Assembly (NCBI RefSeq): GCF_030684315.1
Contig: NC_081354.1
Location: 105,582,426-105,646,425 of the forward strand
Reading direction: 5' to 3'
Source: Stegostoma tigrinum
Lineage: Eukaryota
Length of the DNA stretch: 64,000 nt
The notes under the pieces are model-generated. The model made no database searches. It worked only from the letters and a program-made list of their open reading frames with translations, and had not been told where the DNA came from. The first letter of the stretch is position 1; each line of letters starts with the position of its first letter. Below, piece after piece: positions 1,021 to 63,010 of the stretch. Both the position numbers and the translations under genes were made by a program.

Positions 1021-1215
1021 AGTCAGAACTCACAGACACTAGGTTACAGTCCAGCAGGTTTATTTGAAATCACAAGCTTTTGGAGCACTGCTTCTTCGTC
1101 AGGTGCTGCTCCTTCAGGTGCACTAAAAGCTTGTGTTTTCAAATTAACCTGTTGGGCTATAACCTGGTGCCATGTGCCTTCTGAGTTTGTCCACCCCAGT
1201 CTAATACAAGCTCTT
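1021..1215. mobile_element. Short palindromic Penelope-derived element (family C) with degenerate hammerhead core
   Basis: Arms 1025-1080 and 1125-1185 are imperfect inverted repeats (e.g. caggtttatttgaaatcacaagcttt / aaagcttgtgttttcaaattaacctg). The minus strand at 1071-1105 reads CAC CTGACGA A GAAGC AGT GCTCC AAAA GCTT GTG. A related copy lies at 58940-59075. Confidence 0.6.
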
Positions 1216-1271
1216 CCATCTCATTGATATAACACAAAATGTTTGGAAAGTCATCAGCCATATTCACTCAC

Positions 1272-1390
1272 ACATAAAGTCTCCCATGATGCTAATCCCG
1301 AGACTGATGCGGTTGTACTTCATTGTGTGGGCTCCAACCTTGGTCCATCCACGGCCTTCGTAAATGTTTCCATCTTCGCCGATGATGAAA
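1272..1390 (-). CDS. Short peptidoglycan recognition protein, coding exon 3 (N)[39 protein letters not shown]; the gene continues off the left edge
   Basis: Acceptor ctctcatgcag|T at 1391-1392 and donor T|gtgagt at 1271-1270. Phase 2 joins AA|T (Asn) with the upstream exon. YEGRGW..VGAH and N..SLGI are PGRP/Amidase_2 hallmark motifs. Confidence 0.93.
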
Positions 1391-1574
1391 CTGCATGAGA
1401 GGAAGACATGATCTTTTACAGGGGCATTTTCCTTTGAAAAACAATTGTGGACATATCTAACTTTAAAAATTAGAACAATTTATAATTGTAAATTTATAAA
1501 ACATTAGTTACATTATTCTACAAATCAACCATATTACACAGCAGCAAAAGATTCCTCATAACTAAAATAAATAA

Positions 1575-2160
1575 GAACATAATATTAAAAAAATAGGAGC
1601 AGGAATAGGCCATCAGGCCCCTTTGAGCCTGCTTGACCATTCAGTAAGATCATGGGTGATCTTTTCATGGGCTCAGCTCCACTTACTTGTCCATTCAACA
1701 TATCTTTAATTCCTTTGCTGTTCAAATATCTCTCTACCTACCTACCTTTGCCTTAAAAACATTGAACAAAGCAACCTCAACTGCTTCACTGGGCAGGGAA
1801 TTCCACAGATTAACAACGCTTTGGCTGAAGAAGTTCCTCCTCAACTCAATAAGAAATCTGCTCCACCTTTGAGGCTATGAGCCTGATTCTAGTTTCACCC
1901 ACCAGTGGATCAACCACCCTGCTTCTATCTTATCTATTCCCTTCATAATTTTACATGTTTCTATAAGATCCCCTCCCATTCTTCTAAATTCCAATGAGTA
2001 TAGTCCCAGTTTACTCAATCTCTCCTCATAAGCCAATCCACTCAATTCCAGAGTCAATCTAATGAACCGCGTCTGCACCCCTTCCAGTGGCAGTACATCC
2101 TTTCTCAGGTAAGGAGACCAAAGCTGTACACAGTACTCCAGATGTGGCCTCACCAGTACC
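1575..2160 (-). mobile_element. CR1-clade LINE 3' fragment
   Basis: ORF 1875-2162 LVRPHLEYCVQLWSPYLRKD...YEERL..LGLYSLE is the CR1 ORF2 C-terminus, followed by the tail ending in (ttcttat)-like repeats. Confidence 0.88.
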
Positions 2161-3009: not shown

Positions 3010-3730
3010 GAGAAGAGATTTACCAGGATTTTGCTGGGAACGGAATGTTTAAGTTATAGGCAGAGGCTGGATAGATTGGGACTTCTTTCACTGGAGCATA
3101 GGAGGTGGAGAGGTGACTTCATAGAGAGCCAAGCAGCATCAGAGGAGCAGGAAAGCTGACGTTTCATGCCTAGGCGCTTCTTCAGAAATAGGGAGGGGAA
3201 GGGGATTCTGAAATATATATGGAGAGAGGGGGAGCCGGATAGAAGATGGATAAAGAAGAAGATAGGTGCAGCAGGCCCGAATTGTCAGCTTTCCTGCTCC
3301 TCTAATGCTGCTTGGCCTGCTGTGTTCATCCAGCTCCACACCTTGTTATATCAGATTCTCCAGCATCGGCAGTTCCTACCATCTCTGACCTTATACAGAT
3401 TTATAAAATCATGAGGTGTATAGATAAGATGAATGGCAGGTTTCTTTTCTGTAGGGTGGGAGATTTCAAGACTTGGGGATTAGATTTGAACAAGACATGA
3501 GGGGCAACTTTTCTTTAAATAGACAGAGAGTGGTTCCTGTGTGGAATGAACCTCCAGAGGAAATGGTGAATGCAGGTACAGTTACAATGTTTAAAAGGCA
3601 TTTAGATAAGTACATGAATAAGAAATATTAGGAGAAATATGATCCAAGCACAGGCAGGTGGGAAGAGTTTAGTTTGAGATTATAGTCAGCATGGGGGTCT
3701 ATTTCAGTGTTATATGAGTGTATGACTATG
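3010..3730 (+). mobile_element. CR1-like LINE 3' fragment interrupted by a Penelope-derived element at about 3127-3386
   Basis: CR1 sequence (aagagatttaccagga...gagaggtgacttcatagag) resumes after 3386 (gaccttatacagatttataaaatcatgagg) and ends in a tatgactatgact tail. Confidence 0.75.
3127..3386. mobile_element. Short palindromic Penelope-derived element (family A)
   Basis: gccaagcagcatcagaggagcaggaaagctgac is inverted as gtcagctttcctgctcctctaatgctgcttggc. Same terminal repeat as the GIY-YIG-bearing copies elsewhere in the window. Confidence 0.75.
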
Positions 3731-4954: not shown

Positions 4955-5283
4955 TAGAATAGTAGATTAGACTCCCTACAGTGTGGAAACAGGTCCTTCA
5001 GCCCAACAAGTCCACACTGCCCCTTGAAGCATCCCACCCAGAACCAGACTCCTACCCCTATGACCCACACACCCCTGAACACTGTGGGCAATTTAGCATG
5101 GCCGATCCACCTAGCCTGCACATCTTTGGACTGTGGGAGGAAACCGGAGAACCCGGAGGAAACCCACGCAGACACAGGGAGAATGTGCAAACTCCACACA
5201 GACAGTTACCTGAGGCTGGAATCGAACCCGGGTCCTTGGTGCTGTGAGGCTGCAGTGCTAACCACTGAGACACCATGCCACCC
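4955..5283 (-). mobile_element. tRNA-derived V-SINE (HE1-like shark SINE)
   Basis: Minus strand has A/B-box head (cagtggttagcactgcagcctcacag...gggttcgattcc), V-domain (tgtgtggagtttgcacattctccc...ggtttcctcccacagtccaaagatg) and a CR1-like tail. Near-identical copies at 53697 and 60145. Confidence 0.88.
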
Positions 5284-6889
5284 AAAGTAAAAGAAGAAAA
5301 TTCAACAAACTGGAAAGAGTGGCAAAATCTTGCAGCAGATTTTAGGGAGCTTGGAAAGAGAGCATTAAGTAGCATCTCAAAAGTCATAGTCTTCAGATTA
5401 TTCCTGATGTCATCCACCGGAGCGTGTGAATGTGTCACTCCAGGCTTGGGAGGAAGGCTTTAAATTCCTGGAACACCAGAACTATTTCTGAACAAGGCCA
5501 ATCTCTACAAGCCATGTGGGTGACTCAAACAGAGCCAGGTCCAATTTCCTTGCAGGACAATTCGCTGATCCTGTTGAGGAGGCTTAAACTAATCTGAAAG
5601 GGAATGGCAACTGGAATGTAACATTAAAAAGTCAATACAAACTCCATGAAAGATTGGGAAAAACATTCAGCACCACAAATAAAGAAGGTAAGTTATGTGG
5701 ATTCTGGCTGTGAGGTAATGCACAAAATTTAAATTAACTTTAGAGAATATCCACAAATGCATAAAAATAGGGAAAAAGAAAGCTTGATGAGCTGCAGGTG
5801 TAAAGAGACATTTGGGAATATGATGTTTTAAGGATAATAGAGAATTAGTTCAATGAATGTCATGTCTGGGTTAGGTGTTAAGGAATAATGGTAAGAAGAA
5901 AGAAGCGGTATCTGTAACAATAAAGGAGGACATTGCTGCAGAGAGAGAACATTTTGGAGGAATCAGAACTGAATCTATTTGGTTTGAGTTAAGAAACAAG
6001 TGACATATTGTTTGCTTTATGTATTCTATAGGTCATCAACTAGTAGGAAAGACTTCAGAGAGCATTCATGTTTATTTATTCAGGGGTGATAGCGTTGATG
6101 GCAAGACCAGCATTTATTGCCCATTCCTAATGGCCTTTGAGAAGCAGCTAGCGGGCTGCTTTCTTGAATTGCTGCAGCCCATGTGCTATAGGGACAGTCA
6201 CAATGCTGTTAGGGAGAAAGTTTGAGAATTTTGGCCCAGGGAAGTTATAGAGAAATGCAAAAAAAAAAATGGGGAGGACTTCCCAGATAGCAGCATTTCC
6301 TGTACCACCACCACCAGCAGTTAACAAGGAACGTAGCCATTGACCACAGCTATATACGCCTCTGAGTTTAAATGCCTCTCATTTATGCAGAGGTGCCAGC
6401 AGATGTCAGTTAATCGACAAGCTCAGCAGTGCCAGTGCAGCAGTGCCCAGACTAAAATTGTCAGCAGGTTAGTCAGGCAGGTAGGAAGCAGCAGGAAAGC
6501 CACCCAGGGAATTTTACTGACCTTAACTTCTGCAAATACGTGGGCAAATTTCTGCCCACTGACCTGTAAGAATGGAGATATCTTTAACAATTAAATTTTG
6601 CCAATCATAGCCAAAATCTTTGATGTGGTGCATGTTTTCAATGAGCAAGTACGTTTGGAATTTGAGGGTAGGACTCGCCCCCACACATTTAATGAAACCA
6701 GTTCTCTCCATCAAACACAGGCAAAACCAGGCCTAATATTTCCGTATTTTCAAATCAAGGCTCAAATGTTCATGGAAACCGTTACTGCAAATCCAGAGAA
6801 AACTCATCCTGAATCAGCTCAAGCTGTGAAACATTCACATTTTCTGGAATGACAAATGAAAAAAGTTGAAGATTTTCTCAGGGACTTAC

Positions 6890-7091
6890 TTGTAGCCAAT
6901 GTCACACCATTTCTTTTCCTGCATATGGTAATATTCGATGTTCCGCAGTTGCCTCTTACAATCGACCATGTTGAAGCAGCGGTTACCAGCAGTGTGGTGA
7001 ATCACAGCGTACGGACGTGAGGGTAACAGTTTGTCGACACAATGAGAAGTACGTGTGGACCATTCAGAACGCTTTATAATCGGTGGGCAGC
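6890..7091 (-). CDS. Short peptidoglycan recognition protein, coding exon 2 (G)CPPIIKRSEW...VIHHTAG..C....C...HMQEKKWCDIGY(N)
   Basis: Acceptor ttctcatag|GC and donor TACAA|gtaagt. Contains II.R.EW, VIHHT (Zn ligand His) and WCDIGYN, all canonical PGRP motifs. Confidence 0.93.
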
Positions 7092-10996: not shown

Positions 10997-12351
10997 TAAA
11001 CCAAGGGTCTAGGCCCAAAACGTCAGCTTTTGTGCTACATAGAACATTACAGCACAGTACAGGCCCTTCGGCCCTCGATGTTGTGCCGAACTGTCAAACC
11101 AATCTCAAGCCCATCTAACCTACACTATTCCATGTACGTCCATATGCTTGTCCAATGACGATTTAAATGTACCTAAAGTTGGCGAATCTACTACCGTTGC
11201 AGGCAAAGCGTTCCATACCCTTACTACTCTCTGAGTAAAGAAACTACCTCTGACATCTGTCCTATATCTTTCACCCCTCAATTTAAAGCTATGCCCCCTC
11301 GTGCTCGCTGTCACCATCCTAGGAAAAAGGCTTTCCCTATCCACCCTATCTAACCCTCTGATTATTCTATATGTTTCAATTAAGTCACCTCTCAACCTTC
11401 TTCTCTCTAACAAAAACAGCCTCAAGTCCCTCAGCCTTTCCTCATAAGACCTTCCCTCCATACCAAGCAACATCCTACTAAATCTCCTCTGCACCCTTTC
11501 CAAAGCTTCCACATCCTTCTTATAATGCGGTGATCAGAACTGTACACAATACTCCAAGTGCGGCCGCACCAGAGTTTTGTACAGCTTCACCATAACCTCT
11601 TGGTTCCGGAACTCGATCCCTCTATTAATAAAAGCTAAAACACTGTATGCCTTCTTAACAGCCCTGTCAACCTGGGTGGCAACTTTCAAGGATCTGTGTA
11701 CATGAAAACCGAGATCTCTCTGCTCATCTACACTACTAAGAATCTTACCATTAGCCCTGAACTTTGCCTTCTGGTTACTCCTACCGAAGTGCATCACCTC
11801 ACACTTGTCTGCATTAAACTCCATTTGCCACCTCTCAGCCCAGCTCTGCAGCTTATCTATGTCTCTCTGCAACCTACAGCAGCCTTCGTCACTATCCACA
11901 ACTCCCCCGACCTTAGTGTCGAATGCAAATTTACTAACCCATCCTTCTACGCCCTCATCCAGGTCATTTATAAAAATGACAAACAGCAGTGGACCCAACA
12001 CCGACCCTTGTGGTACACCACTAGTAACTGGTCTCCAGGATGAACATTTCCCATCAACTACCACCCTCTGTCTTCTTTTGGCAAGCCAATTTCCGATCCA
12101 AACTGCTATATCTCCCACAATTCCATTCCTCTTCCTTTTTTACAATAGCCTATTGTGGGGAACCTTATCGAACACCTTGCTGAAATCCATATACACCACA
12201 TCAACCGGTTTACTCTCATCTACCTGTTCGGTCATCTTCTCAAAGAACTCAATAAGATGCTCCTAAGATGCTGCATGGCCTGCTGTGTTCATCCAGCCCC
12301 ACACTTTGTTATCTTGAATTCTCCAGCATCTGAAGTTCCCATTATCTTTTA
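10997..12351 (+). mobile_element. Penelope-derived short element (family A) with 16-bp target-site duplication, split by a younger LINE
   Basis: TSD tctgtgaggagctgga at 10981-10996 and 12352-12367. The terminal repeat aagggtctaggcccaaaacgtcagcttttgtgct resumes as gctcctaagatgctg at about 12258. Confidence 0.8.
11037..12256 (-). mobile_element. Young 5'-truncated CR1-clade LINE (RT and 3' tail)
   Basis: ORFs 11534-12118 and 11120-11512 give nearly continuous CR1 RT/C-terminus with one stop. The tail is near-identical to 29468-29815. Confidence 0.92.
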
Positions 12352-12769: not shown

Positions 12770-13810
12770 ACTTTGTTTACTGTCTACTAACCAGCTTTCG
12801 ATCCATGGCAGTACACAATTCCCAATACCATGCGGTTTAATTTTATTTGATGATTTCTTATGTGGGACCTTATCAAAAGCTTTCTGAAAGTCGAAGTAAA
12901 TTGTATCTAGTGGTTCCTCCTTATCAAATCTGCTAGTTGGATCCTCAAAAAATTCCTGTAGATTTGTCAAGCATGATTTCCCTTTCACAAATCCCTGCTG
13001 ACTCTGTCCAATCCTGTCATTATTTTCCAGGTGCTCGGCTATTAATTTTTGTTTTCTTTATTCATTCATGGGATGAGGGATCACCGACTAGGCCAGCATT
13101 TATTGCCCATCCTAATTGCCCAGAGGTAAGTCCAGAATCACATGCAGCCCAAACCAGATAAGGACAGCAGTTTCCTTCCCTAAGGGACATTTGCCGGTGG
13201 GTTTTTCTGACAATCGGCAATGGATTCATGCTCAAACTCTTAATTCCAAATAATTATTGAATTCAAATTCCGCCATCTGCCATGGTGGGATTCAAACCCA
13301 GGTCCCTAGAACATTCGTTTCAGAGATAGTAGGGACTGCAGATGCTGGAGAATCTGAGATAACAAGGTGTAGAGCTGGATGAACACAGCAGGCCTAGCAG
13401 CATCTTAGGAGCAGGAAAGCTGACGTTTCAGGCCTAGGCCTTGGCCTGCTGTGTTCATCCAGCTCTACACCTTGTTATCTTCAGAACATTACTTGGATCT
13501 CTGGGTTAACAGTTCAGAGGCAATACCCCTAGGCTATCACCCTCCCACTAAATCTTTTATAATGAACTCTAGCATTTTCCCCTCTATTGATAACCACCCT
13601 CCAATGCCCTGCATTCTTTCTCCCTCCTGTTTTGAATAGTGGGGTTACATTAGTTACCCTCCAATCCATTAGAACTGTTCCAGGGTCTACAAGAACTTGA
13701 AAGATAACTACCAAACCATCCACTATTTCTTCGCCACTTCCTGAAATACTCTGGGATGTAAATTATTAGGCCCTGTGGATTTATTCACATTCTATCAATT
13801 TTCGTGAAAA
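12770..13810 (-). mobile_element. Old CR1-like RT fragment interrupted by a SINE
   Basis: KGKSCLTNL.EFFED..IYFDFQKAFDKVPH (12710-12988) and DWRVTNVTPLFK (13529-13723). Confidence 0.8.
13057..13535 (-). mobile_element. SacSINE/Deu-domain-like SINE with a palindromic Penelope-derived insert at about 13320-13481
   Basis: Reverse complement of the element at 52654. The insert has an inverted repeat (gataacaaggtgtagagctggatgaacacagcagg / cctgctgtgttcatccagctctacaccttgttatc) and a short duplication agaacatt (13308-13315, 13483-13490). Confidence 0.75.
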
Positions 13811-15724: not shown

Positions 15725-16243
15725 GTTAATGGGAACTGCAGATGCTGGAGAATCCAAGATAATAAAATGTGAGGCTGGATGAACACAGCAGGCCCAGCAG
15801 CATCTCAGGAGCACAAAAGCTGACGTTTCGGGCCTAGACCCTTCATCAGAGAGGGGGATGGGGTGAGGGCTCTGGAATAAATAGGGAGAGAGGGGGAGGC
15901 GGACCGAAGATGGAGAGAAAAGAAGATAGGTGGAGAGGAGAGTATAGGTAGGGAGGTAGGGAGGGGATAGGTCAGTCCAGGGAAGACGGACAGGTCAAGG
16001 AGGTGGGATGAGGTTAGTAGGTAGGAAATGGAGGTGCGGCTTGGGGTGGGAGGAAGGGATGGGTGAGAGGAAGAACAGGTTAGGGAGGCAGAGACAGGTT
16101 GGACTGGTTTTGGGATGCAGTGGGTGAAGGGGAAGAGCTGGGCTGGTTTTGGGATGCGGTGGGGGAAGGGGAGATTTTGAAGCTGGTGCTCCTGAGATGC
16201 TGCTGGGCCTGCTGTGTTCATCCAGCCTCACATTTTATTATGT
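15725..16243 (-). mobile_element. Penelope-derived element (family A) with terminal inverted repeat and 17-bp target-site duplication
   Basis: TSD tgtgctctgaaataagt at 15708-15724 and 16244-16260. About 56-bp perfect inverted repeat 15758-15813 / 16186-16241. Confidence 0.88.
15819..15851 (-). ncRNA. Minimal (Penelope-type) hammerhead ribozyme motif
   Basis: Minus strand CT CTGATGA A GGGT CTAG GCCC GAAA CG TC AG: intact CUGAUGA and GAAA boxes, 4-bp stem II, palindromic ACGT stem III, GUC cleavage triplet; stem I only about 2 bp. Confidence 0.62.
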
Positions 16244-20519: not shown

Positions 20520-20597
20520 CCAATAAAAATCCCACTGGAAGAAACCATTGACTGCTGTTCTCCCGGGAAAGTGGATTTCACTGAGCTCCTATAAATA
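20520..20597 (+). promoter_or_regulatory. SLC10A4 core promoter: CCAAT and TATA box
   Basis: CCAAT at 20520-20524 and TATAAATA at 20590-20597, about 50 nt upstream of the ATG, in a CpG-richer repeat-free region. Confidence 0.6.
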
Positions 20598-20647
20598 CAG
20601 CTGGAGGGGAGCTAGGGAGCCCGGGCACTAGGTATACCCTCGGTGAG

Positions 20648-24267: not shown

Positions 24268-24838
24268 TTGGATGTGAGTTTGCTCGCTGAGCTGGAAGGT
24301 TAGTTTTCAGACATTTCGTCACCATTCTAGGTAACATCATCAGTGAGCCTCCGACGAAGCGCTGGTGTTATGTCCCGCTTTCTATTTATCTGTTTAGGTT
24401 TCCTTGGGTTGGTGATGTCATTTCCTGTTCTTTTTCTCAGGGGATGGTAGATTGGCTCCAAGTCAATGTGTTTGTTGATGCAGTTCCGGTTGGAATGCCA
24501 TGCTTCTAGGAATTCTCGTGCATGTCTCTGTTTGGCTTGTCCTAGAATGGATGTGTGTCCCAATCAAAGTGGTGTCCTTCCTTATCTGTATGTAAGGATA
24601 TGAGTGATAGTGGGTCACGTCGTTTTGTGGCTAGTTGATGTTCATGTATCCTGGTGGCTAGCTTCCTGCCAGTTTGTCCAATGTAGTGTTTGTCACAGTT
24701 CTTGCAAGGTATTTTGTAGATGACGTTCGTTTTATTTGTTGTCTGTATAGGGTCTTTTAAGTTCATTAGCTGCTGTTTTAGTGTGTTGGTGGGTTTGTGG
24801 GCTACCCTGATGCCAAGGGTTCCGAGTAGTCTGGCAGT
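24268..24838 (-). mobile_element. Penelope-like element (Poseidon-type) 3' fragment, GIY-YIG endonuclease
   Basis: TNVIYKIPCKNCDKHYIGQTGRKLATRIHEH...FDW, then after a frameshift AREFLEAWHS...INKHIDL.PIY. Confidence 0.88.
24307..24346 (-). ncRNA. Minimal hammerhead ribozyme motif (family B)
   Basis: Minus strand TCA CTGATGA T GTTACC TAGAAT GGTGAC GAAA TG TC TGA: stem I TCA/TGA, 6-bp stem II with one G-U, both catalytic boxes, GUC triplet; TG is a probable CpG decay of CG in stem III. Confidence 0.72.
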
Positions 24839-25996: not shown

Positions 25997-26905
25997 AGAT
26001 AACAAAGTGTGGGGCTGGATGAACACAGCAGGCCAAGCAGTATCTTAGGAGCACAAAAGCTGATATGTTGGGCCTAGACCCTTCATCAGAAAAGGGGGAT
26101 GTGGAGACGATTCTGAAATAAATAGGGAGACAGGGGGAGGTGGACTGAAGATAGATAGAGGAGAAGATAGATGGAGAGGAGGGTATGGGTGGGGAGGTAG
26201 GGAGGGGATAGGTCAGTCCAGGGAGGACGGACAGGTCAAGGGGGCGGGATGAGGTTAGTAGGTAGGAAATGGAGGTGCGGCTTGAGGTGGGTGGAGGGGA
26301 TAGGTGAGAGGAAGAACAGGTTAGGCAGGCGGGGACGAGCTGGGCTGGTTTTGGGATGCAGTGGGGGAAGGGGAGATTTTGAAGCTTGTGAAATCCACAG
26401 TGATACCATTGTGCTGCAGGGTTCCCAAGCGGAATATGAGTTGCTGTTCCTGCAACCTACGGGTGGCATCATTATGGCACTGCAGGGGGCTCAGGATGGA
26501 CCTGTCGTGTAACGAATGGGAGGGGGAGTTAAAATGGTTTGTGACTGGGAGGTGCAGTTGTTTATTGCGAACCGAGCAGAGGTGTTCTGCAAAGCAGTCC
26601 CCAAGCTTCTGCTTGGTTTCCCCAATGTAGAGGAAGCCACACCGTGTACAGAGGATGCAGTATACCACGTTGGTGGATGTGCAGATGAACATCTGCTTAA
26701 TATGAAAAGTCATCTTGGAGCCTGGGATGGGGGTGAGAGAGGAGGTGTGGGGGCAAGTGTAGCACTTCCTGCGGTTGCAGGGGAAAGTGCCGGGTGTGGT
26801 GGGGTTGGAGGGGAGTGTGGAGTGGACAAGGGAGTCACGGAGAGAGTGTTCTCTCCGGAAAGCAGACAAGGGTGGGGTTGGAAAAATGTCTTTGGTGGTG
26901 GGTCG
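25997..26905 (-). mobile_element. Penelope-like element (family A) 3' fragment with GIY-YIG
   Basis: ORF 26321-26869: C..RKCYTC...TSTNVVYCILCTRCGFLYIGETKQKL.D.FAEH...HFN...EQQLIFRLGTL..G; same terminal repeat as the short elements. Confidence 0.88.
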
Positions 26906-27149
26906 TGCATTGGCTGGATTGGATTTGTGCTGCTTTTTATAGACAGGATATACTCAGGCAATTTTTGCACATTGTCATACATAAATGCTAATGTTGAAGT
27001 TTTACAGAAACAGATTGGTAAGTGTTATAGAGCATATTTCTTCAGTACTCCAGTTAGAATATTGTCAGATCCCATAGCCTTTGCAGTGTCCAGTGCCTTT
27101 ACACATTTTTTGAGATCACATGGAGTGATAAGAATTGGATGATGACCAG

Positions 27150-27843: not shown

Positions 27844-28550
27844 AGATAATGGAACTGCAGATGCTGGAGACTCCAAGATAACAAAGTGTGAAGCTGGATG
27901 AACACAGAAGGTTAAGCAGCATCTCAGGAGCATAAAAGCTGACATTTCGGGCCTAGACCCTTCATCAGAGAGGGGGATGGTGAGTGGGTTCTGAAATAAA
28001 TAGGGAGAGAGGGGGAGGTGGACCGAAGATGGAGAGAAGATAGGTGGAGAGGAGAGTAGAGGTGGGGAGGTAGGGAGGGGATAGGTCAGTCCAGGGAAGA
28101 TGGACACGTCAAGGAGGCGGGATGAGGTTTGTAGGTAGGAAATGGAGGTGTGGCTTGAGGTGGGAGGAGAGGATGGGTGAGAGGAAGAACAGGTTAGGGA
28201 GGCGGAGACAGGCTAGGCTGGTTTTGGGATGCAGTGGGGGAAGGGGAGATTTTGAAGCTTGTGAAGTACACATTGATACCATTGGGCTGCAGGGTTCCCA
28301 AGCGGAATATGAGTTGCTGTTCCTGCAACCTATGGGTGGCATCATTGTGGCACTGCAGGAGGCCCATGATGGACATGTCGTCTAAGGAATGGGAGGGGGG
28401 GGGGAGTTAAAATGGTTTGCAGTTATTTATTGTGAACCGAGCGGAGGTGTTCTGCAAAGAGGTCCCCAAGCCTCTGCTTGGTTTCCCCAATGTAGAGGGA
28501 GCCACACCGGGTACAGTGGATACAGTATACCACATTGGCAGATGTGCAGG
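27844..28550 (-). mobile_element. Penelope-like element (family A) 3' fragment with 12-bp TSD and hammerhead motif at 27938-27970
   Basis: TSD tgtcatacacag at 27832-27843 and 28551-28562; GIY-YIG C-terminal remnant; CTGATGAAGGGTCTAGGCCCGAAATGTCAG on the minus strand. Confidence 0.85.
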
Positions 28551-28836: not shown

Positions 28837-29930
28837 TCACAGTTGTACAGCTTGGAAACAGACCCTTTGGTTCAACCGATCCATGCTGACTTTATATCCT
28901 AAATTAATCTCGTCCCATTTGCCAGTATTTGGCGCATATCCCTCTAAATCCTTTCTATTCATGGATCCATCCAGATGCCTTTTGAATGCTGTTATTGCAC
29001 CAGCCTCCACGACTTCCTCTGGCAGCTCATTCCATAAATGCACCACACTGTAAGTCAAAGTTGACACTTAGGTACTTTTTAAATCTTTCTCCTCTTACCT
29101 TAAACCTGTGTCCACTAGTTGCGGACTTCCTGACCCTGGAAAAAAGACCTATCATAATTTTATTAACCTCTAAAAGGCCACTCCGCTTCCTCCAACTCTC
29201 CAGAAAAATGGCTGCAGCTTATTCAGTCTCTCCCTATAGCTCAAACCCTCCAATCCTGGCAACATCTTTTCTGCATGCGTTCAAGTTTAACAACATCTTT
29301 CCTACAGGAGGGAGACCAAAATTGACACAATATTCCATAAGTGACCCAACCAATATGCTGATGAAGGATCTAGGCCCGAAACGTCAGCTTTTGTGCTCCT
29401 AAGATGCTGCTTGGCCTGCTGTGTTCATCCAGCTCCGCACTTCGTTATCTCGGATTCTCCAACATTTACTTAATTGAAGCATATAAAATAATCAGAGGGT
29501 TAGATAGAGTGGATATGGAGAGCCTTTTTCCTAGGATGATGACAGCGAGTACGAGGGGGCATAGCTTTAAATTGAGGGGTGAAAGATAGAGGACAGATGT
29601 CAGAGGTAGTTTCTTTACTCGGAGAGTAGTAAGGGAATGGAATGCTTTGCCTGCAACGGCAGTAGATTCGCCAACTTTAGGTACATTTAAGTCGTCATTG
29701 GACAAGCATATGGACGTACATGGAATAGTGTAGGTTAGATGGGCTTGAGATTGGTTTGACAGGTCGGCACAACATCGAGGGCTGAAGGGCCTGTACTGTG
29801 CTGAAATGTTCTATGTGCAATTCCCATTATCTCTAACCAATATCTGGTACAGCTGCAACATGGTATCCCAACTCCCATACTCGCCAATAAAGTACTGAAT
29901 GCTTTCTTCACTACGCCCACCTTCAAGGAA
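28837..29930 (-). mobile_element. Old CR1 3' fragment containing a Penelope-derived element (29357-29834) that itself contains a young CR1 tail (29468-29815, +)
   Basis: TSD aaccaatat at 29348-29356 and 29835-29843. Plus-strand ctgatgaaggatctaggcccgaaacgtcagc starts the insert. The inner LINE matches the reverse complement of 11037-11385. Confidence 0.82.
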
Positions 29931-33699: not shown

Positions 33700-33930
33700 T
33701 CAAGACAGGAGCTGCAGATGCTGGAAGATCTGAGATAACAAGGTGTAGAGCTGAATGAACACAGCAGGACAAGCAGCATTTCGGGCGTAGAAAGGCTGAC
33801 GTTTCGGGTCTAGAACCTTCAGGAAGATCGTATTTTCTTTTCTGGAGAAGGGTCTAAGCCCGAAACGTCTTCTGTCCTGCTCCTCTGCTGCTCGGTCTGT
33901 TGTGTTCATCCAGCTCTACACCTTGTCCCT
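33700..33930. mobile_element. Palindromic Penelope-derived element in ZAR1 intron 1
   Basis: acaaggtgtagagctgaatgaacacagcag...gacgtttcggg mirrored by cccgaaacgtc...tgtgttcatccagctctacaccttgt; decayed hammerhead cores on both strands. Confidence 0.78.
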
Positions 33931-38705: not shown

Positions 38706-38967
38706 TTACCTACTAACCTCATCCCACCTCCTTGACCTGTCCGTCTTCCCTGGACTGACCTATCCCCTCCCTACCTCCCCACCTATACTCTCTCCACCTA
38801 TCTTCTTTTCTCTCCATCTTCGGTCCGCCTCCCCCTCTCTCCCTATTTATTCCAGAACCCTCACCCCATCCCCCTCTCTGATGAAGGGTCTAGGCCTGAA
38901 ACGTCAGCTTTTGTGCTCCTGAGATGCTGCTTGGCCTGCTGTGTTCATCCAGCCTCACATTTTATTA
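38706..38967 (+). mobile_element. Penelope-derived 3' fragment (family A) with 11-bp TSD and hammerhead motif at 38876-38907
   Basis: TSD gctttgtcaaa at 38695-38705 and 38968-38978; CT CTGATGA AGGGTCTAGGCCT GAAACGTC AG. Confidence 0.85.
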
Positions 38968-43029: not shown

Positions 43030-43240
43030 AGAAGTTGCTGGAAAACCTCAGCAGCTCTGGCAGCATCTGTGAAGAAAAAAAATAAGATTTAATGTTTCAG
43101 ATCCAGTGGTGCTTCTTCAGAATTGATGGTACGTTAACTCTGATTTTTTACTTCACAGATACTACTAGACCTGCTCAGCTTTTCCAACAAATTCTGCTTT
43201 TGTTCCTGATTTACAGCATCTGCAGTTCTTTTGGTTTTTA
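43030..43240. mobile_element. Short palindromic Penelope-derived element (family D)
   Basis: gttgctggaaaacctcagcagctctggcagcatctgtgaag mirrored by cttcacagatactactagacctgctcagcttttccaac; same terminus as the element at 44060. Confidence 0.65.
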
Positions 43241-44057
43241 TTTAGCATAGATAAATTTGTAAGGAGAAAACATGCTAATGAGATGGTGTACAACGGGTGG
43301 AGAATCATGTGCAGCAAAGCTGTTACTGCATTGAAAATTCGAAACAATTCTCCGTAAATAAGTTTTGCCTCAGTAGTTATTTTGAAATCTGAAGACTCTA
43401 AAGAAGGTAAAGCTACCTTAATGATGCTCAGTCTTTACAGTATTTAGACAAGTAATCACACTAATTCACATTATTTAAAATTGCAACTATAGTTTTACAA
43501 CATTCAACCCATCTACTTTTTTGAATGAAACTATCTGCTTCCCAGCTTACTCCCACATGAAAAATTATTGGCAAAATTGAGATAGGATTAAGGTCATGTT
43601 GTGGGAATGCCAACACATTCAACTTCCTTGTCTTTTCACACATCACAATTTGAATACATCATTACAGTTATGGAATTCAGGAAAAGGACCGTGAGGAACT
43701 TGCAGTTTTATAAAAGAAATGGAGAGGTATTGGGGCTCTGTCAGGCTTAAAATTGGACAAAAACCCTAGCCCAAATGAATGGCATCCCAGGCTGCTGTGG
43801 GAAGTGAGCCAGGAAATTACAGAGGCTCTGAGACAAATTTTTAATTCCTCTGTGGCCACAGGGGAGTTGCCAGAGGACTGCAAGACAACTAGTGTGGTTT
43901 TACTTTCTAAGAAGGGTGGTAGAAATGAACCAAAAAATTACAGACTGAGTCTCATGTCAGTGGTAGGGAAATTATTCAGGAATATTCTGGAGTGAATTAA
44001 TACCTACTTGGAAAGGCAGGGATTAATTAGGAAAGTCAGCATGACTTTGTCAGAATC

Positions 44058-45047
44058 ATAAAAACCAAAAGAACTGCAGATGCCCAAATCAGGAACAAAA
44101 TCAAAATTGCTAGAAAAGCTCAGCAGGTCTGGCAGTGTCTGTGGAGAAGAAAACAGTTAACGTTTTGGGTCCGGTGACCCTTCCTCTGAACTGATGGTGG
44201 CTGGAAAAATGTCAGTTCATATGCAGAAAATAGGGAGGTGGGTGGGCTAGGGAGTAAACAATGAGACAGAGCCCAAAGAGAGAGAAAGACAGTTGGACAG
44301 ACAAATGAGTTGCTAACGATCAGGCTGGGAGGGTGAATAGTTGTTAATGGGGACTGTTAGCGACTAACAACAGGGGGTGTGTAGCGGCAGGCTATGTGGT
44401 AACAAGGGGTAGGGGGCTGGGACATGGGAAAGTTTAGACCCTAAAATTACTGAACTCAATATTGAGTCAGGAGGGCTGTAGGGTCCCCAAGTGGAAAATG
44501 AGGTGTTCTTCTTTCAGCTTTCATTGGGCTTCACTGGAACACTGTAGCAAGCCGGAGACAGACATGTTGGCCAGGGAGCGAGGTGGTGCATTGAAGTGGC
44601 AGGCAACAGGTAGTTTAGGGTCTTTTTTGCAAGCAGAATGAAGATGTTCAGCGAAGCGGTCGCAGAGTCTATGCTTCATTTCCCCAATGTAGAGGTAGCA
44701 GAAATGGTGTCTGATCATCAGCCATTTCTGCCACCTCCAGCAAGATGCCACCACCAGACACACATTTCCCTTCCCTCCCTTATCTGCCTTTTGCAGGGAT
44801 TGTTCCCTCCGGGACACCCTGGTCCACACTTCCTTCACTCCAAACACCTCCCCACAGCACCACGGCACCTTCCCCTGTAACCAATGAAGATGCAACGCCT
44901 GCCCATTTACCTCCTCCCTCCACAGTATCCCATGGCCCAAACATATCTTCCAAGTGAAGCAACACTTCACCTGCACTTCCAAGAATCTAGTCTACTGCAT
45001 TCGCAGCTCACAATGTGGTCTCCTCTACGTTGGGGAAACGAAGCGTA
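44058..45047 (-). mobile_element. Penelope-like element (family D) with an inverted 5' segment
   Basis: Minus strand 44058-44700 encodes LYIGE.K.RL.DRFAEH...VACHFN. The upstream part (44715-45047) is on the plus strand and ends in an inverted copy of the LYIGE segment. Degenerate hammerhead core at 44157-44195. Confidence 0.78.
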
Positions 45048-47220
45048 GTAGTGTGGCGCAATGATCTCCACATCGCCGAGGCCAGACGCCAGCTCTCTGA
45101 CCCCTCCTGTTATCGCCCCCTTGATCATAATCCCACCCCTAAGCACCAACCATCAACTCCCAAACCATCCACAACCTCATCACCTCAGGTGACCTCCCAT
45201 CCATAGTCTCTAACCTTATTGTTCCCCAACCCTGCACTGCTCACTTCTATCTCCTTCCCAAAATCCACAAACCTGACTACCCTGGTTGACCCATTGTCTC
45301 CGCCTACTCGTGCCCCACCAAACCTATCTGGACTCTATTTTCTCCCCCTTTGTCCAGTAACTCCCTACCTACATCCGTGACACCCACGCTCTCCATCTCC
45401 TCCAGAACATCTAATTCCCGGTCCCCAACACCTCATCTTTACTATGGACATCCACTCCCTATACACCTGTGTTCCTCAAGCAGATGGCCAAAAATGTCCT
45501 CCGCTTCTTCCTGTCCCACACGCCTGACCAGTCCCCCTCCACTGACGTCCTCAGCTGCTTATCCAAACTCGTCCTCACCCTCAACAACTTCTCCTTTAAT
45601 TCCTCAAACTTCCTACAGACAAAGGTGGCGGCCATGTGTACCCGCATGGGCCCAAGCTATGCCTGCCTCTTTGTAGGACACATAGAGCAATCCCTTTTCA
45701 TAGGACACATGGAGCAATCCCTCTTCTGCACCTACACTGGCCCCATCCCCCACCTCTTCCTTTGTTACATTGATGACTGTATCGGCGCTGCCTCGTGTTC
45801 CCACGAGGAGCTCGAACAGTTCATCCACTTCACTAACACCTTCCACCCGAACCTTAAGTTTACTTGGACCATCTCTGACACCTCTCTCTCCTTCCTGGAC
45901 CACTTTGTCTCCATCTCTGGCATCCACCTGGAAACCAATATCCATTTTAAGCCTGGCTCCCACAACTACCTAGAATATTCCTTCTCTCACTCATCTTCCT
46001 GTAAGAAGGCCATTCCCTTTTTCCAATTCCTTCACCTCCACCACATCTGCTCCTGAGATGAGGCATTCCACTCCCGAACATCCCAGATTTCCTCTTTTTC
46101 CAAGAATTGCAACTTCCCCTCACAGTGATCGAAAATGCCCTCGACCGTGTCTCCCACATTACCCGTGACTCATCCCTCACAATCCCTACCCATAATAATA
46201 ACCAAAACAGAAACCCCCTCGTCCTCACACACCACCCCACCAATCTCCAAACCAATGCATCATCCTCCGACATTTCTGCCATCTGCAATCCAACCCCACT
46301 ACCAGACATTTTTCCCTCCACACCCTTGTGCGCTTTCCGGAGGGACCACTCTCTCGGTGACTCCCTTGTCTGCTCCACACTCCTCTCCAGCCCCACGACC
46401 CCAGCACTTCTCCCTGCAACCGCAGGAAGTGCTACACTTACCCCTCTACCGCCCCCCTCACCCCCATCCCAGGCCCTAAGAAGACTTTCCACATAAAACG
46501 GCTGTTCACCTGCACATCAGTTAATGTGATATACTGTATCCACTGCTCCCGTCATGGCATCCTCTACACTGGGGGAAACCAAGCGGAGGCTTGGGGACTG
46601 CTTTGCGGAACATCTATGCTCAGTTCGCAACAAACAACTACACCTCCCAGTCGCGAACCATTTCAACTCCCCCCCTCAACTAACTCCTCGGACGACATGT
46701 CCATCCTGGGCCTCCTGCATTGCCACCATGACGCCACCCGAAAGCTGTGGGAACAGCATCTCATATTTTGCTTGGGAGCCCTGCAGCCCAAGTGTATCAA
46801 TGTGGACTTAACAAGCTTCAAAATCTCCCCTCCCCCGACCACATCCCAAAACCAGCCCAGTTAGTTCCCGGCCCCCTAACCATTCCTCCCACCTCAAGCC
46901 CGGGCCCCATCCCCTACCCACTAACCTTATCCCACCCTCCTTGACCTGTCCGTCCTCCCTGGACCGAACAACCCCTTCCTAACTCCCCACCTACATTTAC
47001 CTTCACTGGCTCTAATGCTCTTTGACCTGTTTGTCTCCTCTCACTCTATCTTCTCCTTTATCCATCTTCTATCCGCCTCCCCGTCTCCCTATTTATTTCA
47101 GAATCCCCTTCCCCTCCCCCATTTCTGAAGAAGGGTCTTGACCCGAAACATCAGCCTTCCTGCTCCTCTGATGCTGCTTAGCCTGCAGTGTTCATCCAGC
47201 TTCACCCTGTGTTATCTCAG
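45048..47220 (+). mobile_element. Decayed Penelope-like retroelement (family A): RT, GIY-YIG and terminal repeat
   Basis: FYLLPKIHK, LVLTLNNFSFN...QTK..AM.T.MGPSYACLF, YIDD, LKFT...FLD, then IYCIHCSR...GETKRRL.D.FAEH; CTGAAGA A GGGTC TT GACCC GAAAC at 47125-47149. Confidence 0.9.
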
Positions 47221-51659: not shown

Positions 51660-52636
51660 AATTATGAGCTGGAAATCACTGGGCTTTGGGTCAGCTTGGG
51701 TTAGAAAGAAAATAACTAACCAGGCAAGGTTTGTTTGCAAGGCTAGGCCTGGAGGCTAACTGAAGGCTGAGCCTTGATTAAACAATTTAACGGACACAGC
51801 AACTTCTGGGAAAAGCATTATGTTTAAACAGATAGCAGAAGTTAGCTATTACAGAAAACAGCACCTGGGAGTTGGTCTGGAGAATACCCTATCTTCAAAC
51901 AGATGGCAGTTGTTGGGGTCTTGGGGAATGTTGATCAATTTATTAGAACAGAACCAGAATTAAAGTTTTTTAAAAACTATTTTTCTAAGAGATGGTTCTG
52001 GGTTACTGTCGAAACATGAAGATTTGAGAGCACCTTGTGTAATCTGATACACGAGGTTCCAGAAGCCCAGAAAAAGGAAAGATGAATTAGAAATTTTGCT
52101 GTTTTTGCCAGGGTGAACTGAGAAGGTGACGTTAAACAATGCATTTTTTAGGACATTTAAGTAATTTGGCAACTTTTTTAATTTTCTTTTATTTATCCCT
52201 TAACTGTTTGTTTGTCTACCTGTCTTTTGTGTGAATGGAGCTACAAACAAACTTTTTTCTGAAGAAGGGTCTACGCCTGAAATGTCAGCCTTCCTGTTCC
52301 TCTGATGCTGCTTGGCCTGCTGTGTTTATCCAGCTCCACACCTTATTATCTCTAGAAACAAATATATTGGGTTTAAAGTACAGACATTACTCAGCTGTTT
52401 AATGTTCTCTCAGCCAAAGGTAGTTAGTATTTAATAAATTAAGTCTTTTATTTAAGATACAAAACTAGTGTTTGGAAATTGATTATGCACAGGGTCTGAG
52501 ATTGGTAATTCAAATATCTGATTAGGAACAATTAGAGTGACTATCTGGGGGTCTTCTACAGTTTAATTTTACTATGTTGCAAATCCAGAAGTAGAAAGGC
52601 TGCATTGATTCAGATACCGGTCTCTGTGACATAACA
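51660..52636 (+). mobile_element. Possible solo LTR (with a small Penelope-derived insert at about 52258-52352)
   Basis: About 1 kb segment starting ttatgag and ending cataaca, with an internal AATAAA near 52433. No second LTR or coding sequence. Confidence 0.3.
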
Positions 52637-53696: not shown

Positions 53697-54018
53697 GAAT
53701 TAGAATCCCTACAGAGTGGAAACAGGCCCTTTGGCCCAACAAGTTCACACCGAACCTCAGAACATCCCACCCAGACCCATCCCCTATAACTCACCTAATC
53801 TACACCTCCCTGAACACGATAGGCAATTTTGCATGGCCAATTCACTCACCCTGCACATCTTTGGACTGTGGGAGGAAACCGGAGAACCCGGAGGAAACCC
53901 ACACAGACATGGAGAGAATGTGCAAACTCCACACTGACAGTCGCCCAAGGGTGGAATCGAACCCGGGTCCCTGGTGCTGTGAGGCTGCAGTGCTAACCAC
54001 TGTGCCACCGTGCTGCCC
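53697..54018 (-). mobile_element. HE1-like V-SINE
   Basis: Same head, V-domain and tail as 4955-5283. Confidence 0.88.
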
Positions 54019-54530
54019 CAATTTAACCCATATTCCTCTATACCCTTCCTATTCATGTATCCAGCCAGATGCCTTTTAAAATGTTGTTTTAGCAGCATCC
54101 ACCACCTCCTCTGGCAACTTATTCCATACATGCATCACCCTCTGCATAAAAAGACTGCCACGTTAGCGTCTTTTAAATTACTGCCCGCTCACCTTAAACC
54201 TACACCCTCTAGCTTTGGGCTCCTCTACCATGGGGAAAAGAGCTGGCTATTCATCCAATCCATGCCCCACATGATTTTATAAACTTCTAGAAGGTCACCC
54301 CTCAGCCTCCAACACTCCAAGGGAAATAGCCCCAGCCTATTTAGCATCTCCCGAAAGCTCAAACCCTCCAACCCCGGCAACATCATTGTAAATCTTTTCT
54401 GAACCCTTTCAAGTTTCACAACATCTTTACTAAAGCAGGGAGACCAGAATTGAAAGCATTTTTCCAAAAATGGTCCAACTAATGTTCTTATCAGTTGCAA
54501 CATATCACCCCAAGGCCTATACTCGATGCA
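54019..54530 (-). mobile_element. CR1 LINE 3' fragment
   Basis: ORF 54225-54503: QFWSP..KDVVKLERVQKRFT.MLPGL...LRGDL.EVYKIM. Confidence 0.85.
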
Positions 54531-60100: not shown

Positions 60101-60144
60101 CCCATCTACATGCCTTTTAAATGGAAGTACCTAGAAAGGATGAT

Positions 60145-60460
60145 TAGATTACATTAACTACAGTGTGGAAACAGGCCCTTCGGCCCAACAAGTCCACACT
60201 GCCCCTTGAAGCATCCCACCCAGATCCATTCCCCTTACAACCCACACACCCCTGAACACTATGGGCAATTTAGCAAGGCCAATCCACCCAGCCTGCACAT
60301 CCTTGGACTGTGGGAGGAAACCGGAGCACCCAGAGGAAACCCACGCAGACATGGGGAGAATGTGCAAGCTCCACACAGACGGTCACCTGAGGCTGGAATT
60401 AAACCCGGATCCCTGGCACTGTGAGGCTGCAGTGCTAACCACTGAGACACCATGCCGGCC
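60145..60460 (-). mobile_element. HE1-like V-SINE
   Basis: Closely similar to 4955-5283. Confidence 0.88.
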
Positions 60461-60939
60461 ATGATGCTCTGGTAATATTCCTCCATGAATTGTTCAATTA
60501 GCTGCCAGAGGGCTAGCTGCCTTTCAGTTAAGAATGACTGATAAGTTATCAAAGTGAGAACGTCAAATGAGGTATTCAAGCATCATAAAGACGTTGCTTC
60601 CATCTTAAGACATCACCTAAGCTTCTTTGAAGTCTAATGTAAGAACTGACCACAGCCTGTAGGTGACCTTAGTGGAATGACCTATAAGGCAGACTGTGAC
60701 TGCAAACAAGAGGGGCACTTCAATGTATGCCTCGAGTGGAGACTTCAGTTTTCATGCTGGGTAACAAACTGGGGTAACTGGAATGCTTCTGATACTACAG
60801 CTGCTCACAAGTGGAATATCCTAGTCAATATCTGGTAATTAGCCTTAGTTGTCTTTTAACTTACCTTAATTAGATAGCTGCCACTAGTATTGCCCCTCAT
60901 CCCCTGATCCCACCTCCATGAAAATTCTGTTCATGGACA

Positions 60940-63010
60940 AGTGTAGATTAATTAAAGAACATCACCGGGGATACATAAAATGCAAATTGTATCCAGCTAA
61001 CTTGATTGAGCTTTTGATAGGTAATAATTAAGTATGATGGGGATAATGCATTTAATGTAGTATATATGAATTGCAAAATGTCATCCAAAAAGGTGGTATA
61101 TGAAAGGCTTGGTGGTTTCAGCTCATGGAATAAAAGGCATGGATATATGGTTGGCAGAGCGACAGGAAAGTAAGTAATGATAATATTATTTTTTAACTGG
61201 AGTCAAGTATGGAGTGAGACTCCCCCAGAGCCTGGTGCTGAGACCACTGCTTTACCAAATTTGTGTATAATTATATATACATATCTAAAAAATTGAATTA
61301 AACCTGCAAAAGTCCTCTTTACCAACACCAAAGGAGTAGAATATATTCAGGGTGGGGGTTAGATACTCTTTTTTGGAGGTAGTTGTTGATGCCAATATTA
61401 CTTGCCTTGTATCAGCCCTAATCTGAATGTTATCCACATCTTGCTCTAGTATTGGAGGTGTCACAAATGGTGCTGTATACTGTGCAACCATCAATGAACA
61501 TTGCCATTTCTCAGCTTCTGATGGAGAGGCTATTGATGAAACAGTTGAAGATGGCTATGCCTAGGATACCATTCTGAAAAACTCCTGCAGAGGTGTCCTA
61601 GGGTTGGGATGATAACCTCCAAAGACCATTTCCATCGGGATCTGAAGAGGAGTCATATTAGGCTTGAAACACTGTTTCCTTCAACACAGGTGTTGCCAGA
61701 CCTGATGGGTTTCTCAAGTATTTTCTGTTTTTATTTCAGATTGCCAGCATTTGTAATATTTTGCTTTTATTACAAGGCTCCTTGATGCCATACTGAGTCA
61801 AATGTCTTATAGCAAGGACAGTCACTCTCACCCCATCACTCCAGTTCAGCTCATTAGTCCAGATTTGAACAAAGGCTGTATTGGTGTGAGGAGCTGAGTG
61901 GGCCTGACAGAAGGGCTGGAACAAATGTAGTGAGCAAGTTATTGCTAGGTGAGTGCCACTTCATAGCACTGTTGATGACATCTTTCAGCATTTCACTGAT
62001 GACTGAGAGTAGTCTGATGGGGCAAGGTAATGGGGACTTTTTGCAAATACGGTATATCTGGGTAATTTTTCATATTGTCATCTAGAAACTAGTATTGTAG
62101 CTGTATTAGAACAGTTAAGCCACTGGCATGGCTAATTTTGCCATGTCTTCAGCACTATTGCTGGAATGTAGACAGGAGCCATAGGCTTTTATTGCAATTC
62201 GTTCACGGGAATGGACATTGCTGGCCAGGCCAGTATTTATCACCCATACCTAACTGCCTTTGAGAATGTAGTGGCTCACCACCTTCTTGAAAATGTTGCA
62301 GCCTCTGGGGCACTGGAACACCCAAAATGCTGTTAGGAAGGGAGGTTAAGAACTTTGACCCTGTCAGTGGTATAGATTCAGATTAGGATGCTGTGTGACT
62401 TGAAGCAGGGCAAGCAAGTGGTATTTCCATGCACCCAGCTGTTGTCCTTCTGGATGGTCTTGGATTTGGAAATTGCTGTCAAATGATCCTTGACAAGTTG
62501 TTGCAGGGCATCCTGCTGCCACTGCGCATCACTGGGGAAGGGAGTGACTCTGGAAGGTGGGGTATAGTGTGTTGGATGGTGTCAAGTCTCTGGTTGTTGA
62601 CCGAGATCCACACATTCAGACAAATGGACAGTATTCCTTCCCAATCCTGACTTTTGCTTTGTAGGTGGCGAATAGGCTTTGCAGAAGCGAGAGGAGAGAT
62701 GTGAGAGGTGAGATAACTGCTGCAGGATTTCTAGTTTCTGACTTTCTTTGGTACTCAAATTATTGAAATGGCTGGTCTGTTTCAATTTTGGTCAAGTGTA
62801 ATGCTCAGGATATTGATAGTGGGTGATTGTGTAATGATAATGCTATTGAATGTCAAAGTGTACTAAATCATTTTTTGTTGGAGATGTTCATTGCCTGGCA
62901 TTTGTGTAAGAGTTAAACTTACTTGCTATTGTCAGTCCAAGCTTGAATATTATCTAAATCTGGTTGCATTTGAATGTGAACTGCTTTAGTATCTAAGGAG
63001 TCATGAAGAG
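60940..63010. mobile_element. Mosaic of heavily decayed LINE fragments with a family E short element at 61640-61770
   Basis: CR1-like RT remnants on both strands, LINE tail at 62195-62510, and CTGAAGA G GAGTC ATATTA GGCTT GAAAC at 61642-61670. Confidence 0.55.

Follow-up and report, generated by a model that had tools for sequence, protein, structure and literature searches.

Copy ends of Penelope-like elements in the shark Stegostoma tigrinum likely record a capped transcript start and occasional cutting by a minimal hammerhead ribozyme

In this work we analyzed the hammerhead ribozyme motifs of Penelope-like elements (PLEs) in a 64,000-nucleotide stretch of the genome of the shark Stegostoma tigrinum (GCF_030684315.1, contig NC_081354.1, positions 105,582,426 to 105,646,425 of the forward strand; hereafter the window). 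The window was compared with genome-wide searches and with a genome sample of 91 evenly spaced 10-kb stretches (910 kb), to which 40 stretches (400 kb) were later added, giving 1.31 Mb in total. The hammerhead class itself is known; new is that the ends of the element copies likely record a capped transcript start and occasional cutting in vivo. In the Neptune-type families the motif would form the first ~30-36 bases of a capped sense RNA and would cut a small share of it. Judging from genomic sequence, we assign this explanation as a whole a probability of roughly 0.75.

Start and cut-site footprints of the copies

The first base of the conserved CTGANGA box is counted as +1 and the base preceding it as 0; the cut in family A is predicted between +28 and +29. 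Among the 231 family A copies in the 1.31 Mb, 85 are long and 146 (~63%) are short. Sixty-one of the 231 copies start in -5..+4, 45 in +5..+28, 4 at +29 and 21 over -180..-21; in a first pass over 974 kb, 51 of 174 starts fell in -5..+4. Families D and E, taken together, have 92 short copies out of 99, with 50 starts in -5..+4, and family C, whose copies were not chosen by their start, has 8 starts at -6 and 5 at -5. A TATA-like box begins upstream of the peak, at a distance of 30 nt in subfamily A1, 31 in subfamily A2, 29 in D and 30 in C, the last read from a single mutated long copy. The base at the peak agrees with an initiator or TCT-type start. Distances and fit were determined by hand on family sequences.

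Furthermore, the base preceding the start was recorded. Under the pattern used, 5,382 young A1 copies start at -3, and in the 100 matches listed the base before this start is most often G (71), followed by T (22) and A (7; hand count). When 30 A1 loci were evaluated by code, 10 of the Gs could have been templated by an inverted arm; among the other 20 loci, 14 had a G against 26% expected (p 6e-5). For family D, hand counting gives a preceding G in 49 of 100 matches listed, and evaluation by code gives 16 of 28 (p 6e-4). Where copies start between -2 and +60, a G precedes the start in 8 of 82 cases in family A and 18 of 66 in family D, and young A1 copies alone, taken from an unselected sample, show it before 5 of 8 starts at -3. 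In L1, an extra 5' G is described in passages of PMC11702581 as a mark of capped templates that were reverse-transcribed. Copies of families A, C and D thus probably record a capped transcript start just before the core, and most short copies would be run-off copies of capped, uncut sense RNA.

A subfamily carrying a templated G at -4 was ruled out, with G found there in 0 of 82 long A1 and 0 of 9 long D copies. A pile of family D starts at +24 (9 of 99) is probably an alignment artefact of the different stem II of family E and was left unused.

At the predicted cut site a second, smaller footprint was found. Perfect head-to-head junctions at four 4-nt palindromes were searched with fold-back patterns of 28-34 nt, allowing CpG decay where present. 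The cut-site palindrome AGCT (+29..32) gave 595 loci, CTAG (+13..16) 108, GGCC (+56..59) 21 and ACGT (+24..27), only 5 nt away from AGCT, 38, i.e. 16-fold fewer. The pattern for starts at +29 had 4,166 matches, of which 100 listed were made up of 35 point mutants, 40 fold-back arms and 25 other junctions. Scaled up from such hand counts (100 matches listed each), this corresponds to ~2,700 starts at +29, ~1,040 without perfect fold-backs, as compared to ~390 at +28 (722 matches, ~54 of 100 listed true) and ~360 at +30 (1,721 matches, ~21 of 100 listed true). No excess of G before +29 starts was apparent in the 25 other junctions listed. In family D, with its cut site at +31, 3 starts were found there versus 1 at +30 and 0 at +32, numbers too small to carry much weight. 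Taken together, the copy-end peaks and the cut-site excess suggest that the transcript likely carries the ribozyme within its first ~32 bases and that a small share of the templates is cut by it; cutting in vivo at the predicted site is, from these genomic ends, probable.

Short head-to-tail repeats of the tail alone that restart near the cut site were also observed (G000:C1, e.g. 149364516-149364694 and 4383885-4384019) and could stem from repeated template jumps or small circles. Contigs from sequencing runs were inspected as well. In those of one run, possibly the assembly's own sample, the largest listed loose end is at 0 (476 records). A further run supplied contigs with 12 listed joints, 4 of them leading to -3 and 3 to +29, in agreement with the two footprints. 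Contigs of guessed RNA runs (other organism, small shares) show neither starts nor ends, and these last therefore count neither for nor against.

Several points weigh against a transcript start and a cut as the source of the two footprints. In the fresh 400 kb the family A peak is broader (12 of 67 starts in -5..+4, 16 in +5..+28), family B has no pile-up of short copies, and a subfamily with a T-rich upstream region may contribute part of the peak at 0. In the unselected sample including old A2 copies, a non-templated G precedes only 2 of 9 starts at -3. A tandem copy (locus L134) extends 130 nt upstream of the proposed start, so that read-through templates also exist. Stem I of family A is just 2 bp long, and the excess at +29 could come from stalling of the reverse transcriptase (RT) where it meets the 3' edge of a ribozyme that is folded or bound by protein. 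Moreover, the A1 monomer is predicted to be an inactive hairpin in which the core pairs with the cut site (-11.4 kcal/mol, 83% of the ensemble), and plain co-folding gives no active dimer.

The strongest competitor extends this argument to both peaks, which would then reflect RT stalls or microhomology joining at a structured, protein-bound motif; the motif would serve as a structural or protein-binding signal and would hardly ever cut in vivo. We consider this unlikely, even though it has more in its favor than the other alternatives. Metazoan minimal hammerheads have low activity in vitro according to passages of PMC4209133, and in Anolis the relevant parts of PMC11167929 describe cleavage as protein-dependent and the hammerhead as dispensable for insertion in vitro, with no RNA-seq reads ending at its site. 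Uncleaved starts (-5..+4) outnumber those at the cut site (+29) 61:4 in family A, and the predicted monomer fold is inactive. However, the main peak falls outside the structure, at 30 nt from the TATA-like box, with which it moves (-3, -3, -6), and it carries the non-templated G. At the scissile bond the minor peak spans a single base, an equally long palindrome 5 nt off has far fewer fold-backs, and the catalytic bases are retained in all three lineages of the motif.

Two further folding observations were made. The predicted off-state of the family A monomer (L134:2727-2760) is a register-shifted 6-bp helix between core and cut site, and a single folded family D copy has a weaker core/cut-site pairing of like kind. 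For the tail, z-scores of +0.7 to -0.5 gave no support for a conserved fold.

Hammerhead families and their host elements

The motif was detected with a strict descriptor (CTGANGA, optional bulge, stem II of at least 4 bp, GAAA). In the window it gave 7 matches, whereas 30 dinucleotide shuffles averaged 0.1 matches and never exceeded 1. The 910-kb sample yielded 82 matches versus 0 in the reversed and complemented sequence, about 9 of the 82 being assignable by eye to no family, and the further 400 kb yielded 36 versus 1. The total of 118 in 1.31 Mb equals 90/Mb and extrapolates to ~290,000 in 3.2 Gb; the window, at ~109/Mb (7 in 64 kb), is close to this density, so the locus is not special. 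One 30-nt variant alone has 94,491 exact copies genome-wide (reversed control 0). The very high copy number proposed in a preliminary description of this DNA is thereby borne out. No match to any of 4227 Rfam families was obtained in the whole window at gathering score, as expected for motifs without helix III. The motifs are almost certainly minimal type I hammerheads of PLEs, as that description had named them, on the basis of the motif and of its RT/GIY-YIG context. In families A, B, C and D the motif was placed within the pseudo-long terminal repeat (pLTR) of a PLE.

A relaxed family search found 16 copies in the window, of which 1 (core start 15849-) is fully canonical; the individual window copies are most likely dead. 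All eight places cited in the preliminary description do contain the motif, with core starts at 1102-, 15849-, 24343-, 27968-, 38878+, 44188-, 47125+ and 61642+, its coordinates marking the 3' side of the minus-strand copies. Intact CTGANGA and GAAA boxes, stated there for each copy, hold for the family majorities and not for every place, as the copies at 1071 and 44157 read AAAA and the latter also CAGAGGA. Two details had to be corrected: 61642 has C at 16.1 and hence no NUH triplet, and stem II at 47125 is 4 bp instead of the five pairs GGGTC/GACCC, the fifth of which would leave a 2-nt loop.

Majority sequences were built from seven subfamily sets (n = 57, 26, 31, 9, 35, 10 and 23; the B2 set takes in B1 copies). 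Both boxes (CUGANGA and GAAA), U16.1, a pyrimidine at position 17 (H17) and a bulged base after A9 are kept in all seven majorities; single copies are often mutated. Among the 82 strict matches of the 910-kb sample, the bulge is present in 76, and pair 10.1-11.1 is G-C in 45 and G-T (CpG decay) in 30. Stems I, II and III covary between family majorities, as judged by a side-by-side comparison of their sequences. In stem II, 4-7 bp long, pair 10.2-11.2 is G-C, A-U or U-A and the pair at 10.4 is U-G, U-A, G-C or A-U; in stem I, 2-4 bp long, pair 2.1-1.1 is U-A, C-G or A-U; in stem III, pair 15.2-16.2 is C-G or G-C. Helix III is a 4-nt palindrome without loop III, ACGT or AGCT in six of the seven majorities; that of the old family E (n=9) reads ACAT owing to CpG decay. 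Palindromic stem III and compensating stem II pairs, both suggested earlier, recur in the majorities.

Inserted copies decay neutrally: 57 A1 copies have substitution rates of 1.6% in the non-CpG core, 2.3% at other non-CpG and 13.6% at CpG positions, and 26 of them keep an intact core. As stem changes fall between families and changes within families represent decay, selection acted on the master elements and not on the inserted copies.

The repeat termini had been described as five dissimilar ones. They collapse to three lineages, A/D/E, B and C, and the catalytic bases are kept in the majorities of all three. The copies at 15819, 27938, 38876 and 47125 (family A), at 44157 (D) and at 61642 (E) have a common tail motif, and the endonuclease (EN) proteins of the first two groups are 52% identical. 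On its own strand, the family A hammerhead is preceded by an RT, then a CxxxxCxxC linker and then a GIY-YIG domain. Locus L122 contains both domains in one 939-aa frame, in which RT motifs were recognized by eye and GIY-YIG forms the C-terminal part; Pfam found the latter weakly (E 0.009, under the curated cut-off) and gave no RT match. A search with the window RT returned 97,711 candidates, with open frames of up to 939 aa among the 150 scored of these. The family D hammerhead likewise lies 3' of its endonuclease, which is also preceded by the CxxxxCxxC linker. A CX2-5CxxC linker between RT and EN is described in PMC8557442. Nematis has this linker too. Families A and D/E are probably Neptune-type EN+ PLEs, a name based on these motifs. 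Of the sampled DNA, ~8% consists of family A and related Neptune-type sequence.

In family B, the hammerhead is found 3' of a Poseidon-type GIY-YIG domain without Cys linker, and the ATG of the next frame lies within its core/stem II. From this ATG layout and the C-terminal endonuclease part, the RT part not having been recovered, it would belong to the Penelope/Poseidon clade. For family C, 2 of the 9 upstream regions inspected tie it to a distant Neptune-like RT, in locus L078 on the partner arm (E 6e-14). In the family C elements of L078 and L172, a long (CA)n tract separates the reading frame from the pLTR. Short window PLE remnants were not recognized by Pfam, and a sequence search of the PDB found nothing.

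L134 has a 3724-bp tandem unit with an ATG ~168 nt after +1 of the core; the N-terminal part of its frame holds a variable 21-nt tandem repeat (ADGTPPT units; L134:3627-3830), where the frameshifts of long copies cluster. The family A pLTR (L134:6330-6450; window 38750-38877) contains a CTGAC that resembles a branch point, then ~100 pyrimidine-rich bases free of AG, and an AG at -22. Inside host introns this tract could serve as a splice acceptor, or it may simply result from base composition; a 3' splice site there as an explanation of the copy starts was dropped because short copies have no common upstream exon.

Head-to-head pairs account for 89 of the 146 short family A copies. Of the 8 window insertions tested, 3 have target-site duplications (TSDs) of 11-19 bp, another one has an 8-bp match and the remaining 4 have none. 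Head-to-head copies and TSDs are known PLE insertion anatomy (parts of PMC8557442 and PMC3846280). Non-autonomous derivatives had been proposed earlier; on this view the short copies would be separate families, SINE-like (short interspersed element) or retrozyme-like with short masters of their own. Their large share (~63% in family A, 92/99 in D/E), trans-mobilisation between pLTRs in rotifers (PMC3846280) and retrozymes derived from PLE pLTRs (10.64898/2026.07.22.740005), as described in passages of these works, would fit such a view. Nevertheless, it is improbable: the junctions of 41 head-to-head pairs inspected are largely different, short copies have individual junctions and TSDs, contain only the element's 5' leader and carry the same subfamily marks as the long copies, and longer copies continue into RT/GIY-YIG remnants. 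Tandem arrays of hammerhead units were not found in the window, where copies are solo or head-to-head.

Comparably doubtful is that head-to-head insertions arise by self-priming on an antisense transcript, a model proposed in PMC3846280 (Arkhipova et al. 2013) that agrees with the common palindromic junctions. The passages in question leave the sense or antisense template origin of inverted ends open. Here, the non-templated G is located at the sense-strand start, also in arms of inverted pairs (6/8), and in vitro the template is sense RNA, with both target strands being extended (part of PMC11167929).

Copies and genes in the window

The coordinates of the window copies and element remnants are given in the table.

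Table. Hammerhead copies and Penelope-like element remnants in the window
Feature	Position	Strand	Remarks
Head-to-head family C insertion	1019..1232		14-bp TSD, 1 mismatch; hammerhead 1074-1102 (-), G12 mutated
Family A2 hammerhead, decayed stem II	3158..3185	-	Within head-to-head insertion 3128-3388
Partial family A hammerhead	11003..11036	+	Broken off by the 3' end of a long interspersed element (LINE)
Head-to-head family A insertion	13320..13486		Minus arm begins in stem II, plus arm in tail
Family A1 hammerhead, core to cleavage nucleotide	15822..15849	-	Sole fully canonical window copy; arm of head-to-head insertion 15719-16245, 19-bp TSD
Family B hammerhead, Poseidon type	24310..24343	-	ATG of next frame in core/stem II
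Poseidon-type GIY-YIG C-terminal remnant	24400..24835 (approximate limits)	-	Upstream of family B hammerhead
Family A hammerhead, mutated GAAA box	26062..26089	-	3' of GIY-YIG remnant
Neptune-type Cys linker and GIY-YIG C-terminal remnant	26321..26953	-	87% identical to L122 protein
Family A1 hammerhead, C15.2 to T (CpG decay)	27941..27968	-	Ends 5'-truncated Neptune copy 27841-28552
Family A hammerhead, stem II mismatch	29358..29385	+	Solo short copy beginning at first core base
Head-to-head short family A arms, both damaged	33707..33926		Cores near 33825- and 33842+; intron 1 of ZAR1-like gene
Family A1 hammerhead, G10.1-U11.1 (CpG decay)	38878..38905	+	Antisense, last intron of Furry-like gene
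Head-to-head family D insertion	43030..43241		Decayed core 43091-43120 (-)
Family D hammerhead, U4 and G12 mutated	44159..44188	-	TATAAA and TCAGTT initiator-like motif upstream; Neptune GIY-YIG remnant ~44410-44720
Frameshifted Neptune RT (45415-46056) and GIY-YIG (46361-46864) remnant	45415..46864	+	Upstream of 47125 hammerhead
Family A2 hammerhead, broken helix III palindrome	47125..47152	+	Ends long Neptune copy
Family A2 hammerhead	52259..52286	+	Solo short copy 52256-52352, 11-bp TSD, 1 mismatch
Family E hammerhead, D-related, longer loop II	61642..61673	+	No U at 16.1

The window also contains three genes, an SLC10A4-like gene with a Pfam SBF match, a ZAR1-like gene with exons at 32798-34720 and, on the minus strand, a Furry-like gene of which the 3' end is included (Pfam Fry_C match). 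The names SLC10A4 and ZAR1 are our presumption, as is the assumption that the three genes (20585-34720 +; 38010 onward -) stand in the order found in other vertebrates. Of the 16 window copies, at least 7 are situated between exons that were mapped, which agrees with the earlier statement that many copies are intronic and could suggest ribozymes regulating these host genes; this is highly improbable, given the neutral decay of the 57 A1 copies, the damaging changes in all four copies that are sense or probably sense to their host gene, and the presence of solo copies without a dimer partner. As intronic copies decay neutrally, nothing points to a host role.

An open frame at 6886-7275 (-) has no Pfam match and presumably resembles an exon of a peptidoglycan recognition protein. 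At 11037, 13480 and 29468, LINE 3' ends or AGAACATT-type motifs adjoin Penelope tails, possibly owing to a common target preference; 11037-11385 and 29468-29816 are 95% identical. CR1-type LINE remnants with RT fragments occur at 7605-8816, 11120-12256, 43677-43995 and 54021-54530 (Pfam RVT_1 in two), and a SINE-like repeat of ~320 bp occurs at 4963-5286, 53699-54021 and 60145-60456, its copies being 83-89% identical.

Known relatives and the proposed mechanism

The motifs agree with the minimal hammerheads (min-HHRs) described by Cervera and de la Peña 2014 (PMC4209133, in part) in the CUGANGA/GAAA boxes, the bulge between 9 and 10.1, G10.1-C11.1, the palindromic 15.2-16.2, the shortness of helix I, the presence of several consensus families in one genome, the predominance of solo copies and Neptune and Poseidon hosts in fish. 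They differ in number, with ~4,000 copies in coelacanth and ~9,000 in Xenopus as compared to 94,491 exact and ~290,000 extrapolated copies here; as a stricter descriptor was used there, these figures are not directly comparable. Passages of that paper name no shark and contain no mapping of transcript starts or in vivo cut ends.

Family B resembles the Poseidon element PAc of Anolis carolinensis (Frangieh et al. 2024, PMC11167929, in part) in its start codon within the core/stem II, whereas the family A ATG follows the core by ~168 nt. The preferred family A 3' ends behind the ribozyme (~+76, +93 and +129) match the tail expected from internal RT initiation as demonstrated for PAc. Genomic copy ends are in excess at the cleavage site here, in contrast to the Anolis RNA-seq ends. 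The Penelope elements of Drosophila virilis (PMC2377424) and Adineta vaga (PMC3846280) share the pLTR promoter and start, inverted 5'-truncated arms, tail and TSDs, and the A. vaga pLTR also has a putative TATA and initiator. In D. virilis, however, there is a TATA-less internal promoter and an intron between start and hammerhead, as opposed to the upstream TATA-like box and the putative start 3-6 nt before the core in the shark.

Non-LTR retrozymes (10.64898/2026.07.22.740005; see also PMC7229834) likewise have type I hammerheads and a PLE-pLTR origin and include one sampled chondrichthyan, but consist of tandem repeats with a ribozyme in every unit, unlike the dispersed solo or head-to-head stubs found here. 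The role of hammerheads in EN-bearing PLEs is called unclear in a passage of PMC8557442, and dimeric PLE hammerheads of Lünse et al. 2017 are mentioned in the review PMC6765202. Our literature search, whose coverage left out most subscription journals and Repbase, found no shark description, no mapping of start or cut site and no support for in vivo cleavage; supplements or Lünse et al. 2017 may list shark variants.

A capped start followed directly by the ribozyme would suggest the following course of events. Driven by the TATA box in the pLTR, transcription would begin ahead of the core, by 3 nt in families A and D and by 6 nt in family C. The element protein would start reverse transcription in the tail, 50-110 nt behind the ribozyme; initiation at the 3' tail would yield long copies, and initiation at the 5' tail run-off copies of ~95-135 nt ending at the cap. 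Both target ends would be primed and the two cDNAs joined head to head. Two hammerheads, from both ends of one transcript or from two RNAs, are predicted to pair via the 4-nt palindrome, probably with the help of protein; cleavage of the 5' copy would clip off the capped leader, that of the 3' copy the tail. With only 3-6 nt upstream of the core in the RNA, a short stem I would possibly be explained.

As to function, we favor, with low confidence, a cap-removing switch between messenger and template states; translation tuning, RNA protection and circularisation are other roles to be considered. In its full form this proposal, that the hammerhead is transcribed first and acts as a self-decapping switch, seems to us slightly better than even on the sequence data. 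Most RNAs would remain capped and uncut and be copied, cleavage triggered by a dimer or by protein would remove a capped leader of 32-36 nt, and the stubs would record both RNA ends, in vivo cleavage by a PLE hammerhead and sense templates primed at both target ends.

If true, hundreds of thousands of stubs would constitute a single-base record of both RNA ends. The proposal makes exact predictions, i.e. capped ends at -3 or -6, a 5'-OH right after position 17 and an uncut to cut ratio of ~15:1 among short templates, and also offers a reason why most ribozymes occur as solo copies. Thus, the copy-end record is the part worth following, as it makes the in vivo role of PLE hammerheads testable.

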